From assembly GCA_963767925.1 (NCBI GenBank), contig CAVYGB010000010.1, positions 96,001-160,000 of the forward strand: 64,000 nt of DNA, read 5' to 3'. The translations under genes and the position numbers were made by a program. The number at the start of each line of letters is the position of its first letter. Position 1 is the first letter of the stretch. Below are positions 46,380 to 55,313 of this stretch, one piece after another. Under the pieces are notes generated by a model. The model was not told where the DNA came from, made no database searches, and saw only the letters and a list, made by a program, of their open reading frames with translations. The stretch is from an uncultured delta proteobacterium. Its GTDB lineage: Bacteria > Myxococcota_A > Polyangia > Fen-1088.

Positions 46380-46916
46380 TCACAGCCAGCCCAGGCGCTC
46401 GAGGGTGGCGACAACGCGCTCGGCGCTGACCTCGGGGCTCTCCGTCCCGTCGGACCGGATGGTGATGTCCGGGGTCCGGGGCGGCTCGTAAGGATCGTCG
46501 ATCCCGGTGAAATGCTGGATCTCGCCGGCGCGCGCCCGCCGATAGAGGCCCTTCACGTCGCGACCCTCGAGCACTTCGAGCGGCGCCGTGCAATAGACCA
46601 GGGCGAAGCGATCGATCTTTTTTCGAACCTCGTCACGCACTTCCTCGTAAGGAGAGATCGCGGCCGCGCAGACGAAAACGCCATGGCGACTCAACAACTC
46701 GCAGACCCAGCCGATGCGACGGACGTTGGTATCCCGATCTGCCTTGGAGAAGCCAAGGCCCTTGCTGAGGTTCTCTCTCACGAGATCACCGTCGAGCAAC
46801 TCCGTGGGAACGCCGCGACGTCGCAGGATGTCAGAAACGAGCCGAGCGGCCGTCGACTTGCCGGCCCCGCTCAGGCCCGTAAACCAGATGGTGGCGCCCG
46901 CGCGCTTGGCCTCCAT
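46380..46916 (-). CDS. cysC: Adenylyl-sulfate (APS) kinase
   Basis: [48 protein letters not shown]. Confidence 0.96.
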
Positions 46917-47097
46917 GTCTGGTAGATTGCCCTGCGAACCCGCAGCAACGCCAGTCCCGGATGGGCCGGGGCGAGGGGGATGGCGCTCGGGCAGAGAGTG
47001 GGGGCGGCGTCAGGCCCGGCGGTCGGAAAGGTCCGCCGGTGCCGCTGAGAGCCGCGGCCAGGCCTCCCGCTGTCGGACAGCTCGTACATCTCCAGAA

Positions 47098-49458
47098 ATG
47101 TCGCCCTGGGCTTTCTCGAAAACCTCCGCCCCAATGATTGGCTGTCTCGCCGCCCTGCTGGGCGCGGCGGGATGTAGCGAGAAGTCTGCCCCGGCCAGCA
47201 CCGGCCCGGCCGTCACCAGCACGGCCACCACCAGCGCCCCGGTTGCGCCCGACGAGCAGCCCGAGGGCCGCCCGAGCGCCCGCAGCCGGCTCAAGGGCGT
47301 GCGGCCGCTCGTCGTCGAGGCCCGCCGGGCCGAGCTCGACGTGGGCGGCATGTTCATCGACTTCGGCACCGCCGATCAGCTCAAGTACACCGCGGGCGGC
47401 TGGGGCAACGGCTGGGGCGAGCGGCGCACCGAGGGCGACGGGGGGACGACCTACGCCGAGGCGCGGGGCCGGACCCTCCCGGTCCGCCTGTTCCTTTACA
47501 AGGAGAGCGGCTTGCCCCGCCAGGTCGCGGTCCGGCTGCGGACGCGCGGCCCACCCCGCCAGGTCTCGCTGCTGATCGACGGCCAGCCGGTGGGCGAGGC
47601 CCGGGTGGGGCCGGCCTGGAGCACGATGAGCGTGGCCCTCGGTGCCGAGTCGATCCGCCTCGGGCCGGTGGAGCTGGCCCTGGTCTTCGATTCGCCTCCC
47701 GGGCGGGGCGGCCTCGACGTCGACTGGATGTGGCTGGGTCGCTCCCCGGACGGGGTCTTCCCCGAGGCCGGTTCCCGGGTGGCGCCGATGACCTTCGGCG
47801 ATGGCACCCGGCGGGCCCTGCTGGCCCCCACCCCGCGAAGTTATGCCTTCTACCTCGAGGTGCCGCCCCGGGCCTCGCTGGTGTTCGACTACGGCGGCGC
47901 CGCCGGCACCCAGTTCCTGGTGCGCGCGCGCATGGACCGGGGGGCAGGCCCCCGCATCGTCTTCCAGGGGAAGGCCCAGCCGGGGCGCTGGCAGGAGGGG
48001 GTGGTCGACCTGGGGCCGCTGGCCGGTCGGGCCATCAAGCTCGAGCTCATCACCCAGGGCTCGATCTCGGCCGGCTGGGGCGATCCCGAGATCATGGTCC
48101 CGCGCGACCCCGCCCCCCGGACCCCGGCGCCGGTCGCCACCCAGCGCAAGCCGGCCCGCAACGTGATCCTGCTGGTCATCGACACCGTGCGGGCCGACGT
48201 GTTCAAGCCCTTCAACAGCAAGAGCGCCGTGCGCACCCCGAACTTCGAGCGGCTGGCCGAGGAGTCGACCGTCTTCACCAGCGCCTACGCCAACGAGAAC
48301 TGGACCAAGCCGTCGGTGGCGACCATCCTCTCCGGGCTCTATCCGACCACCCACGGCACCAAGGAAGACGGCGACGTGCTCAGCTCGGACGCCCCCCTGC
48401 TGTCCGAGCACCTCAAGCGCAAGTCGTTCGCCACCGCCGCCTTCATCGCCAACGGCTACGTCAGCGACAAGTTCGGGTTCAAGCGCGGCTGGGACGCCTA
48501 CACGAACTACATCCGCGAGAACCGCCCCTCCGAGGCCCAGTACGTCTTTTCCGACGCGCTGGCCTGGATCAACAAGCACACCGACGATCGCTTCTTCCTC
48601 TACCTGCAGACCATCGATCCCCACGTCCCCTACGACCCGCCCTCGGAGTACACCCGCATGTACCACCCCGGCGAATACCGGGGGCGCTTCGGCCGTTCTC
48701 TCGATGGCATCGAGCAGCTCGACATCGCCAGCAAGAAGAAGCCCATGGACCAGGCGGACTGGGAGTACATCCGGGCGCTGTACGACGCCGAGGTCACCTA
48801 CCACGACACCCACATGGGCAAGTTCCTCGACCAGATCGACCAGATGGGCCTGCTCGACGAGACCCTGTTCATCGTGACCAACGACCACGGCGAGGAGCTC
48901 CGGGATCACGGCAAGCTGGGTCACGGCCACTCGCTGTACGATGAGCTGGTGCGCGCGCCCATGTTGATCCGCTACCCCTCGCTGTTCCGGGGCGGCCAGC
49001 GCGTCAGCGAGCCGGTCGAGAACGTCGACCTGTTCCCCACCGTGCTGGAGGCCCTGGGCCTCGAGCCGGTGTCCGACGTGGACGGCGTGTCGCTGCTGCC
49101 CATGCTCGAGGGCAAGCCCCCCTCGGTCCCCAGCTACGCCATCAGCGAGTTTCGCGCGGCTTTCCGCAGCGTGCGGCTGGGCCGCTGGAAGATGATCGCC
49201 GGCCAGGACGGCAACCGCCGCCTGTTCGACATGGAGATCGACCCCGCCGAGCAGGTGGACCAGGCGCGGCGGGCGCCCATCGCCAGCCGGATGTGCGAGC
49301 AACATCTGGCCGAGTTTCTGGCCAGCCCGGCCAAGACCCTGCGGTTCCGGGAGGCAAACGTGCCGCAACGCCGCTTCAAGCCAGGCCTGGTGCAGCAGGA
49401 TCCCGAGCTGCGCAAGCAGCTAGAAGCGCTAGGCTACTTCGGGGGCATGAAAGAATGA
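47098..49458 (+). CDS. Sulfatase-fold lipoprotein with non-canonical active site and N-terminal beta-sandwich domains
   Basis: Lipobox AAGC; NVILLVIDTVRAD, NWTKPSVATILSG in place of CxPxR, DPHVPY, NDHGE, GHG; C-terminal LEALGY. Start 47098 or 47134. Confidence 0.88.
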   Translation: MSPWAFSKTSAPMIGCLAALLGAAGCSEKSAPASTGPAVTSTATTSAPVAPDEQPEGRPSARSRLKGVRPLVVEARRAELDVGGMFIDFGTADQLKYTAGGWGNGWGERRTEGDGGTTYAEARGRTLPVRLFLYKESGLPRQVAVRLRTRGPPRQVSLLIDGQPVGEARVGPAWSTMSVALGAESIRLGPVELALVFDSPPGRGGLDVDWMWLGRSPDGVFPEAGSRVAPMTFGDGTRRALLAPTPRSYAFYLEVPPRASLVFDYGGAAGTQFLVRARMDRGAGPRIVFQGKAQPGRWQEGVVDLGPLAGRAIKLELITQGSISAGWGDPEIMVPRDPAPRTPAPVATQRKPARNVILLVIDTVRADVFKPFNSKSAVRTPNFERLAEESTVFTSAYANENWTKPSVATILSGLYPTTHGTKEDGDVLSSDAPLLSEHLKRKSFATAAFIANGYVSDKFGFKRGWDAYTNYIRENRPSEAQYVFSDALAWINKHTDDRFFLYLQTIDPHVPYDPPSEYTRMYHPGEYRGRFGRSLDGIEQLDIASKKKPMDQADWEYIRALYDAEVTYHDTHMGKFLDQIDQMGLLDETLFIVTNDHGEELRDHGKLGHGHSLYDELVRAPMLIRYPSLFRGGQRVSEPVENVDLFPTVLEALGLEPVSDVDGVSLLPMLEGKPPSVPSYAISEFRAAFRSVRLGRWKMIAGQDGNRRLFDMEIDPAEQVDQARRAPIASRMCEQHLAEFLASPAKTLRFREANVPQRRFKPGLVQQDPELRKQLEALGYFGGMKE

Positions 49459-53915: not shown

Positions 53916-53919
53916 TCCG

Positions 53920-54741
53920 ATGGACGAGCTCGCGTCCATGTCCCGGCAGGTGGCCGAAGCGCTCCTCTGGCCATTCGACATCCTGCCGCGCCGGCTCGGG
54001 CTCCTCGTCTTTTCCGTCGTGAGCGGCCTGCTGATGTTGCTGGTGGTCGGCAAGGCCACCCCCCAGGCTCGCCTCAAACACGCGCGCGAGCAGATGTCCT
54101 CGGCCATCTACGAGCTGCGGATCTTCCTCGACAACCCGCGGCGGATCTTCGTGGCCCAGGGGCGGCTCGTCCTGTGGAGCCTGAACTACCTGGCTTACCT
54201 GCTGCCCGCCTTCGCCCTGCTCCTGCCGGTGCTGGCCCTGCTGTTCGCCCCCCTGGAGATCCGCTACGGGCTGACGCCGCTGTCCCCGGGGACCGACGCC
54301 CTCGTCCGCGTCGACCTGCGGGCCCCTCTGGCCGCCGCCGAGCAGGCCACCGTGGAGGGGGGCACCGCCGTCCGGCTGGTCGCCCCTCCCGTGCTGGTGG
54401 CCGACGAGCGGGTGCTCTACCTGCGCCTCGGCATCCTCGAAAAGGGGCTGCACCGGGTGCGCATCAGCGCCCCCGGCTGGCAGGTGGAGAAGATCCTGTC
54501 GGCCGAGGGCGGCGGCGACCGGCCGGTCAGCGCCGAGCGGCGGGCCGGGCTGGGCCAGCTCTTCGCCCTCGGCAACGAGCCCCCCCTCCCCTCGGATGGC
54601 CCGGTGGCGGCGGTGGTTGTCACCCACCTGGAGCGCGAGCAGAGCTGGGCCGGGATCGAGATGCCCTGGTGGATCTTCTGGCTGCTGGTGGCGACGGTGG
54701 TGGCGCTGGCCTTCAAGAAACGCTTTGGAGTGACACTGTGA
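53920..54741 (+). CDS. Three-TM membrane protein, DUF106/EMC3/TMCO1-like architecture
   Basis: TM1, charged helical hairpin, TM2, extracytoplasmic beta domain, TM3 ending WWIFWLL...FKKRFGV. Confidence 0.7.
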
Positions 54742-55313
54742 CGACCAGATCGGAGACGATAACCGTCGTGTCGGGGCTGCCCCGCTCGGGCACCTCGATG
54801 ATGATGCGGGCGATGCAGGCCGGCGGCCTGCCCGTGCTGGCCGATGGCCTGCGCGAGGCCGACGAGGACAACCCCCACGGCTACTTCGAGCTCGAGCTGG
54901 TCAAGAAGACGCTGCACGACGGCACCTGGATCGCCGGAGCCCGGGGCAAGGTGGTCAAGGTGATCGCCCGGCTGCTCGTCGATCTGCCGGCCGGCGAGCG
55001 CTACAAGATCGTGTTCATGCGGCGGGACCTCGACGAGGTGCTGCGCTCGCAACGCAAGATGCTCGAGCGGCGGGGCGAGCCGCCCGGCCCCCCCGACGAG
55101 GAGATGCGCAGCTTGCTGCTGGGCCATATCTTCGAGACCGAAGATTGGCTGCGGGCCCGGCCCGAGATGGAGACCCTCTACGTCTCCTACAACCGCATGG
55201 TTGTCGAGCCCCGCCCCCAGGCCGAACGCATCAACCGGTTCTTTGGCGGGACCCTCGACGTCGACGAGATGGTCGCCGCCGTCGACGCCAGCCTCTACCG
55301 CCAGCGCAAGTGA
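54738..55313 (+). CDS. PAPS-dependent sulfotransferase-family protein
   Basis: [14 protein letters not shown] (5'-PSB loop), [20 protein letters not shown] (3'-PB R...S), LYRQR. GTGA overlap with the upstream gene. Confidence 0.88.

Follow-up and report, generated by a model that had tools for sequence, protein, structure and literature searches.

A conserved, uncharacterised inner-membrane gene cassette with paired NPP-type enzymes, a DUF106/Oxa1-like protein and a predicted PAPS-type sulfotransferase

Overview of the locus

The DNA analysed here, referred to as the window, is a 64,000-nucleotide stretch of contig CAVYGB010000010.1 from an uncultured delta proteobacterium, and the locus under study lies at positions 46380-55313 of it, comprising six co-oriented genes, here called G1 to G6, and a divergent cysC gene. 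The locus is a conserved, uncharacterised inner-membrane cassette, G2-G6, and this lineage has picked up cysC and G1 in addition. The cassette encodes two paralogous alkaline-phosphatase-superfamily enzymes of the nucleotide pyrophosphatase/phosphodiesterase (NPP) type, predicted to sit on opposite faces of the inner membrane, together with a small tailed protein, a membrane protein resembling the DUF106/Oxa1 superfamily and a predicted sulfotransferase dependent on 3'-phosphoadenosine 5'-phosphosulfate (PAPS). The parts are members or relatives of known superfamilies, whereas the assembly fits no described system that was found. In the reading that we prefer, and to which we give an even chance, the cassette acts on one membrane-associated molecule that would be sulfated inside the cell and processed on both membrane faces.

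At the G+C content of the window (72%) open frames alone are weak evidence, and genes were called from codon-position GC profiles combined with inspection of starts and junctions. The features of the locus, with lengths in amino acids (aa) or base pairs (bp), are:

46380-46916, minus strand: cysC, adenosine 5'-phosphosulfate (APS) kinase, 178 aa, divergent from G1
46917-47097, no strand: intergenic region cysC/G1, 181 bp between two starts, presumed promoter region for both genes
47098-49458, plus strand: G1, 786 aa, sulfatase-fold domain, lipoprotein-type signal
49455-51602, plus strand: G2, 715 aa, NPP-type alkaline-phosphatase-superfamily enzyme
51599-53578, plus strand: G3, 659 aa, NPP-type paralog of G2, lipoprotein-type signal peptide
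53607-53915, plus strand: G4, 102 aa, ribbon-helix-helix-like tailed protein
53920-54741, plus strand: G5, 273 aa, DUF106/Oxa1-superfamily-like membrane protein
54738-55313, plus strand: G6, 191 aa, small PAPS-type sulfotransferase

An initial annotation of this DNA, made from the sequence alone, had described six co-oriented genes at 47098-55313 with ATGA/GTGA overlaps, short gaps and a divergent cysC, and the gene calls confirmed this arrangement: ATGA overlaps join G1 to G2 and G2 to G3, a GTGA overlap joins G5 to G6, and gaps of 28 bp and 4 bp separate G3 from G4 and G4 from G5, respectively. The promoter role given to the cysC/G1 intergenic region is presumed from its position; a scan of this region for a sigma-70 consensus found no site, and promoter, terminator and Rfam scans of the locus yielded nothing above background.

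Conservation of the gene order

A search with G5 was carried out over 401 genomes of the phylum, stretches of up to 20 kb were fetched around 37 foreign matches, and the fetched loci (L numbers) were scored by tblastn and by hidden Markov models built from the loci. A further 80 metagenome loci were chosen using the C-terminal pattern of G4, the presence of which in this set is therefore by construction. G5 matches were obtained in 39 of the 401 genomes, one of them (genome G093) being weak and partial. The cassette order was found in 37 genomes from approximately 16 families of the phylum, as well as on metagenome contigs; related genomes are not independent observations, and this applies to all genome counts given here.

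Across many genomes the order G2-G3-G4-G5(-G6) is kept at 25-60% identity. G4 stands directly upstream of G5 in 36 of the 37 genome loci, and the upstream presence of G3 (29 of 30 testable genome loci, 28 of 29 testable metagenome loci) and of G2 (28/28 and 20/20, respectively) is nearly or fully constant. G6 directly follows G5 in 28 of 36 testable genome loci and is adjacent in 27 of 42 testable metagenome loci, while G5 itself is present in 72 of the 80 metagenome loci. Among the eight genome loci without an adjacent G6, three have the gene elsewhere in the locus and five have none in the stretch fetched, four of these five genomes carrying G6 on another contig. Chance juxtaposition was rejected, as the gene order recurs.

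The conserved core is G2-G6, and G1 and the adjacent cysC are lineage-specific additions, because most loci are without them. The unit drawn in the initial annotation thus stands for G2-G6, for which the conserved synteny whose absence it had named as a ground for refutation was found, and falls for cysC and G1, which accompany the cassette at few loci.

For the G5 profile, 3142 representative clusters match with an E value of at most 1e-3, and 1176 of these reach 1e-30. Look-alikes outside the phylum, in Acidobacteriota, Planctomycetota, Aminicenantota and Verrucomicrobiota, are Atlas leads only. A single-sequence scan of genome contigs with G5 found one close relative, L002, and a word-based homolog search with G5 alone likewise returned close relatives only.

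Several loci depart from the usual arrangement. The metagenome exceptions are L074 (a lone G4-like gene), L119 (no G5) and L138 (another arrangement). In the metagenome variant L124 the order is G6, G2, G4, G5, with G3 on the opposite strand (3976-5829, minus strand) and with a twin-arginine-like signal (R-R-K-F-L) in place of the lipobox of G3. For L040, a G2-G5 fusion (open frame of 1072 aa) was considered and rejected, the two genes lying in different frames. In 15 loci (L044, L046, L047, L049-L053, L057, L058, L064, L066, L070, L072 and L073) G2 adjoins a 160-250-aa protein that belongs to no clear family; one member has a weak TPR match, and in seven of the 15 loci the protein is followed by a CobW/COG0523-type GTPase.

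The NPP-type paralogs G2 and G3

G2 and G3 share 37% identity and match PF01663 (Phosphodiest) with 121.6 and 95.3 bits, respectively (cut-off 23). In an alignment of 20 G2 and 16 G3 sequences (alignment A3), seven residues do not vary: D88, S127, D447, H451, D509, H510 and H661. The position of the Xanthomonas NPP nucleophile is taken by S127, and the alignment with NPP covers the nucleophile block as well as the S-D-H-G block. The other invariant residues are presumably the bimetal ligands (Asp, Asp-His, Asp-His, His), roles that we assign from the NPP literature. When the A3 profile was compared with PDB sequences, NPP was matched (7mw8, E 1.4e-8; 2gsn, E 1.1e-7), as was PhnA; a single-sequence PDB search with G2 gave no match. 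An AlphaFold2 (AF2) model of G2 with a predicted local distance difference test score (pLDDT) of 91.5 was used for a Foldseek search, in which chains of Xanthomonas NPP were the best matches (7n1s, E 3.7e-12), ENPP, PafA/SPAP and PhnA structures also being found. Both G2 and G3 are strongly predicted from these features to be catalytically intact NPP-type metalloenzymes.

The two paralogs differ in their N termini. The motif Y-[IV]-G-P-G-A-G was found in 56 of 58 near-full G2 homologs, the other two being cut by contig ends, and it is preceded by a signal-peptide-like segment with A-x-A before the motif in 46 of 51 measured homologs. After the motif come 24 uncharged residues and then a linker that averages 6.1 K/R and 0.2 D/E (51 homologs). 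By the positive-inside rule, such an uncharged helix followed by a K/R-rich linker would place the catalytic domain of G2 in the cytoplasm with only the heptapeptide outside; the signal peptide is probably cleaved, a single N-out/C-in helix holding the enzyme at the cytoplasmic face. Of the 61 G3 homologs whose N termini were testable, 58 have a signal-like hydrophobic segment directly before the catalytic core; the segment carries a lipobox in 37, is Tat-like in 2 and is of another kind in 19. G3 of the window is accordingly predicted to be a periplasmic lipoprotein. An alternative start of G3 at 51743 has AAGGAGG upstream, and the start at 51599 is favoured because the homologs keep the signal peptide.

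The membrane protein G5 and the tailed protein G4

G5 was modelled with AF2 at a pLDDT of 93.1 and a predicted template modelling score (pTM) of 0.81, with helices at residues 24-46, 49-68, 73-117 and 250-264. The model has three transmembrane helices (TM1 to TM3) with a long hairpin between TM1 and TM2 and an immunoglobulin (Ig)-like beta-sandwich of approximately 130 aa inserted between TM2 and TM3; it thus has the three-helix core with hairpin by which the DUF106/EMC3/TMCO1 branch of the Oxa1 superfamily is recognised. The G5 profile (alignment A1) gave as its best match among PDB sequences MJ0480 (5c8j; E 5.8e-5, residues 7-121), followed by filamin Ig domains. In a structural comparison using VIA-align the best match was chain 8 of 7tut, a multipass translocon entry (Z 11.4, 133 residues, root-mean-square deviation 4.1; next Z 8.2), spanning model residues 21-273; this chain is probably TMCO1. 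A Foldseek search of the PDB returned matches to the Ig-like domain only. The G5 protein of the window, like G4, has no family above threshold in Pfam or NCBIfam, one of 30 family members matches PF01956 (E 0.0029), and three relatives are named 'uncharacterized membrane protein (DUF106 family)' by JGI. DUF106 is described in PMC5868721 as archaeal and eukaryotic, with an N-out/C-in topology and a cytosolic coiled coil, and the same topology would place the Ig-like domain of G5 in the periplasm. G5 is strongly predicted to be a three-helix membrane protein like those of the DUF106/Oxa1 superfamily, its Ig-like domain facing the periplasm.

The small protein G4 is predicted to be cytoplasmic and ribbon-helix-helix-like. 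Its core has a strand-helix-helix pattern followed by an acidic linker, the C-terminal tail [KR]-L-[KR]-G-L-G-Y-I-x is invariant, and there are two invariant tyrosines, one of them within the tail after the acidic stretch (alignment A2). In Pfam, DUF7120 scored 22.8 bits, under the 27-bit cut-off, and PF01402 gave no match; the nearest Atlas clusters (scores 0.93-0.94) are automatically named CopG/ribbon-helix-helix and have no common Pfam family. In the clade of the window (the window itself, L037, L038, L039 and L041) the fold unit is doubled, giving a protein of approximately 102 aa, whereas the other aligned homologs have one copy and are mostly 64-68 aa long, a few being longer only through an uncertain upstream start. 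G4 and G5 are the two accessory proteins that the initial annotation had left unnamed; both are present, and they can now be named as a ribbon-helix-helix-like tailed protein and a DUF106/Oxa1-superfamily-like membrane protein.

The predicted sulfotransferase G6 and the tie to PAPS

G6 matches PF13469 (Sulfotransfer_3; 33.2 bits, cut-off 27) and PF00685 (Sulfotransfer_1; 31.1 bits, cut-off 22), with no match to any NCBIfam model. In 26 aligned sequences (alignment A4) an S-G-L-P-R-S-G-T-S loop, R96 and S104 are invariant; we take these to be the 5'-phosphosulfate-binding loop and the 3'-phosphate-binding Arg...Ser motif. The N-terminal loop aligns with the protein-tyrosine sulfotransferases TPST1/2 (E 2.4e-4 to 7.7e-4), and the stretch holding R96 and S104 aligns with the cytosolic sulfotransferases SULT1B1 and SULT2B1. 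G6 is thus strongly predicted to be a cytoplasmic PAPS-type sulfotransferase that keeps both PAPS-binding motifs.

With an E value of 1e-20 or better required, the G6 profile matched 91 of the 401 genomes, and the scores fall into two groups. The high-scoring group (at least 256 bits) comprises 38 genomes, 37 of which are cassette genomes, the division between high and low scores having been chosen after the scores were viewed (gap from 256.9 to 223.2 bits). High-scoring G6 is accordingly present in 37 of 38 cassette genomes and in one of 363 others, the exceptions being genome G063 (cassette and no G6 match) and genome G292 (G6 and no G5 match). An APS kinase was found in 39 of 39 G5-positive genomes and in 309 of 401 overall; as it also occurs in 270 of 362 G5-negative genomes, this profile is weak evidence.

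On L120, an unrelated metagenome contig, an ATP sulfurylase gene (sat), a sulfatase-like gene and cysC (579-3463) lie directly upstream of G2. The sulfatase-fold gene of L120 is short and has Thr at the nucleophile place (W-T-G-P-S), and no G6 was found in the 2.9 kb downstream of its G5. Taken together, the PAPS motifs of G6, its co-occurrence with the cassette, the APS kinase distribution and L120 support a coupling of the cassette to PAPS-dependent sulfation in the phylum, and the connection with PAPS drawn in the initial annotation is supported by the same evidence. A TauE/SafE gene lies near the cassette in L111.

Pfam scans of the other 44 called genes in the window found no further sulfate-activation or reduction gene, in agreement with the earlier remark that the window has no other sulfate-assimilation gene. 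Elsewhere in the genome, profile searches of the 84%-complete assembly detected a cysD-like gene, a PAPS_reduct gene on a different contig and, approximately 646 kb from the locus, a cysN-like frame that includes part of an APS-kinase domain; ATP sulfurylase (PF01747) gave no match in this 84%-complete assembly.

Lineage-specific additions: cysC and G1

The cysC product matches PF01583 (APS_kinase) with 191.1 bits (cut-off 21.1) over profile positions 2-151 of 152 and NCBIfam NF002059 with 258.1 bits (cut-off 244), and it is the sole full-length APS-kinase match in the genome; judged by these matches, it is the PAPS maker. Among the fetched loci an adjacent cysC was found only in the window, its close relative L002 and L120. 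The third-position GC of cysC is 0.76-0.82 as against approximately 0.95 in the flanking genes, which suggests a more recent joining of the locus.

G1 is predicted to be an exported, periplasmic sulfatase-fold lipoprotein. Its N-terminal ~350 aa carry a lipoprotein-type signal and match no family, and residues 354-654 match PF00884 (Sulfatase) with 148 bits; against the NCBIfam sulfatase equivalogs, all scores were far under the cut-offs (150.5 bits as against 481). The formylglycine (type I) sulfatase motif C/S-x-P-x-R is absent from G1, which has T-K-P-S-V at this site. In place of CxPxR it carries the motif NENWTKPSVAT, where Thr takes the formylglycine position, and L002, L041 and L076 share this motif. 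A gene of the G1 family lies directly upstream of G2 only in L002, L037, L039, L041 and L076 among the loci, and weaker sulfatase-fold genes occupy the place of G1 in L088, L094, L111 and L120.

Comparison with known systems

No description of the gene set G2-G6 was found in the literature searched. G2 and G3 share their fold with Xanthomonas NPP (2gsn/7n1s/7mw8) and PhnA (3t02/1ei6), with Foldseek E values of 3.7e-12 to 1e-8 and target-normalised template modelling scores of 0.58-0.61, and they also have in common with these enzymes the blocks of sequence that surround the nucleophile and the metal ligands of the D-H type. However, G2 and G3 are approximately 300 residues longer, residues ~150-360 of the G2 model forming a beta-rich insertion; G2 is membrane-anchored with a domain predicted to be cytoplasmic, and the paralogs are encoded as a pair for two membrane faces.

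With DUF106/Ylp1 (MJ0480, 5c8j) and the EMC3/TMCO1/Get1 branch, G5 has in common the three-helix core and the long TM1/TM2 hairpin. It differs from these proteins in the ~130-residue Ig-like domain between TM2 and TM3 and in having its gene within an operon for enzymes instead of serving as general biogenesis machinery, and it is bacterial, whereas DUF106 is archaeal and eukaryotic according to PMC5868721. G6 shares both PAPS-binding motifs and the Pfam families PF13469/PF00685 with the PAPS sulfotransferases (SULTs, TPST1/2) but, at 191 aa, is approximately 100 residues shorter than the matched solved enzymes (276-355 aa).

The likeness to LtaS, EptA, OpgB, Dlt and Alg is one of analogy only, consisting of an activated donor in the cytoplasm, a step at the membrane and, outside the cytoplasm, an alkaline-phosphatase-fold enzyme with a Ser/Thr nucleophile. 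In contrast to LtaS, EptA and OpgB, G1 and G3 have a signal peptide only and G2 a signal peptide and one helix; G2 and G3 belong to the NPP branch and not to the sulfatase/LtaS branch, and G1 scored 16.7 bits against the LtaS model (cut-off 970) and 25.4 bits against the YejM model (cut-off 825).

Interpretation

In the preferred reading, PAPS made by CysC would feed G6, and on the cytoplasmic side G6 would sulfate a molecule associated with the membrane. Either this molecule or its carrier would then be the target of G2 and G3, one at each face of the membrane, both using one type of phospho- or sulfo-ester chemistry; G5 would either move the polar head group across by means of the hydrophilic groove typical of its superfamily or assemble the G2/G3 pair, and G4 might dock via its tail as an adaptor or regulator.

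A number of observations weigh against this reading. The topology of G2 is drawn from sequence rules only, and the nearest solved relatives of both enzymes are hydrolases of soluble nucleotides or phosphoesters, so that plain hydrolysis fits equally. G6 is absent from the fetched stretch in five genome and ten metagenome loci, and G063, a cassette genome that is 94% complete, lacks any match to G6; a four-gene core can therefore exist without G6. L040 consists of G2-G5-G6 without G3 or G4. The dependence among related genomes, the setting of the G6 score division in hindsight and the frequency of APS kinase in genomes without G5, all described above, count on the same side.

If the enzymes are plain hydrolases, G2 and G3 would be phosphodiesterases or phosphatases for nucleotides or phospholipid head groups and G6, loosely coupled to them, would sulfate an unrelated small molecule; G2 might, for example, clear the by-product PAP/PAPS at the membrane while G3 scavenges in the periplasm. 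The closest solved structures, which are nucleotide pyrophosphatases/phosphodiesterases, the PafA/SPAP phosphatases and PhnA, argue for this view, as do the occurrence of the four-gene core without G6 in some loci and the CobW/COG0523-type GTPase that adjoins the cassette in seven loci, a family linked to zinc supply. We nevertheless consider it unlikely, as it leaves unexplained why the periplasmic heptapeptide of G2 is invariant, why the DUF106-like and tailed partners are constant and the gene order is fixed over wide divergence, and why high-scoring G6 co-occurs almost one to one with the cassette. Unlikely to a slightly greater degree, in our estimate, is a hitherto unknown route of three steps by which the outer face of the inner membrane would receive sulfate or a head group that bears it, whereby the minimal sulfotransferase and the cytoplasm-facing NPP-type enzyme would build a sulfated membrane-bound intermediate, the bacterial DUF106/Oxa1-type protein, from a family hitherto described as protein insertases of archaea and eukaryotes, would carry the polar group across through its groove, and the periplasmic lipoprotein paralog would transfer or trim it onto an envelope lipid, glycan or protein, with the Thr-nucleophile G1 helping in this lineage.

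The initial annotation had favoured a covalent relay, in which G6 passes sulfate from PAPS to the Ser/Thr nucleophiles of the alkaline-phosphatase-fold enzymes, directly or via a lipid donor, and the exported G3 and G1 transfer it to an extracytoplasmic acceptor. Some of its premises were borne out: the topology predictions for G2 and G3 split the enzymes across the membrane, one per face, and the PAPS link (G6 co-occurrence, APS kinase, L120) is tight. G1 moreover has Thr at the nucleophile position of its sulfatase fold, and transferases of the LtaS/EptA type carry Thr at this position. The supposed export of all three enzymes applies to G1 and G3 and does not extend to G2, whose catalytic domain is predicted to be cytoplasmic. 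The missing CxPxR motif, taken in the annotation as a sign of transferases, has lost its force: NPP-type hydrolases normally use a Ser/Thr nucleophile, so its absence neither distinguishes hydrolase from transferase nor separates the rival readings, and G2 and G3 are of NPP type with hydrolases as their nearest solved relatives. Both fall in the NPP/PhnA branch by sequence and fold, the known members of which are hydrolases; the membrane domain of several helices that LtaS/EptA-type transferases have is missing from G1, G2 and G3, and the LtaS model score is the 16.7 bits given above; and most cassettes are without G1 and cysC. A covalent enzyme intermediate cannot itself cross the membrane. 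In favour of the relay, a groove-forming Oxa1-like protein could pass a polar group through the membrane; YidC is termed both insertase and lipid scramblase in PMC11997395. Neither a carrier protein nor an MBOAT-type partner of the Dlt/Alg kind was found among the six gene products using Pfam and NCBIfam. On balance we regard the relay as quite unlikely.

The lowest probability is assigned to a protein-directed function, which appears to us improbable. Here G6 would be a protein-tyrosine-type sulfotransferase acting on a cassette protein, such as the tail tyrosine of G4, G5 would be a dedicated insertase for the N-out anchor of G2, and sulfation of the adaptor would control assembly or activity. 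The best alignment of the G6 N-terminal loop is with TPST1/2 (at the E values given above), but this match covers 23 residues of the shared PAPS loop only; G4 does have two invariant tyrosines, one in the invariant tail following an acidic stretch, and adjoins G5 almost without exception (36/37 genome loci), but the residue before the tail tyrosine is Gly and not acidic. A short translocated N terminus with one helix is the substrate type of Oxa1-family insertases according to PMC5868721, in which, however, bacteria already have YidC for such insertions.

With more than 1000 distinct sequence clusters of the G5 family in environmental data, the cassette points to a common but uncharacterised element of the bacterial envelope. 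Should it serve to move a sulfated molecule across the membrane or to process one there, as in the preferred reading, it would represent a new kind of envelope modification; it would also provide an operon-defined bacterial client for an Oxa1-type protein, and the function of the family would then be testable by genetics.

Genomic surroundings

Immediately upstream of cysC (42007-46350, plus strand) is an odd combination of four genes whose stops and starts overlap: a CxPSR sulfatase without a visible signal peptide, a glycerophosphodiester phosphodiesterase (GDPD), a 248-aa protein without a family and a CobT-type phosphoribosyltransferase. The first of these, at 42007-43500, is a canonical CxPSR sulfatase. 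At the threshold used, the four genes were not seen in L002, where the sulfatase gave only a weak cross-match to the G1 gene.

Directly downstream of the cassette, 57593-64000 (plus strand) encodes a tripartite exporter consisting of an ATP-binding cassette (ABC) ATPase, three tandem HlyD-family membrane-fusion paralogs, a MacB-type permease and an outer-membrane factor. The cassette of L002 is likewise followed by the ATPase gene and by genes of the membrane-fusion type (two matches), but that of the more distant loci by no such set.

A DUF1552 (HXXSHH) gene of the window is apparently split into two frames (20279-21397 and 22522-24711, both minus strand) matching profile positions 27-218 and 241-307, and it adjoins a DUF1587 protein; in the metagenome locus L076 (9132-12457), DUF1552 and DUF1592/1588 genes lie between G5 and G6. 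Approximately 32 kb from the cassette, a polysaccharide-modification cluster at 7634-15333 (minus strand) comprises genes for a polysaccharide deacetylase, an AlgX-like SGNH domain protein and a family 2 glycosyltransferase together with two epimerase/dehydratase genes.

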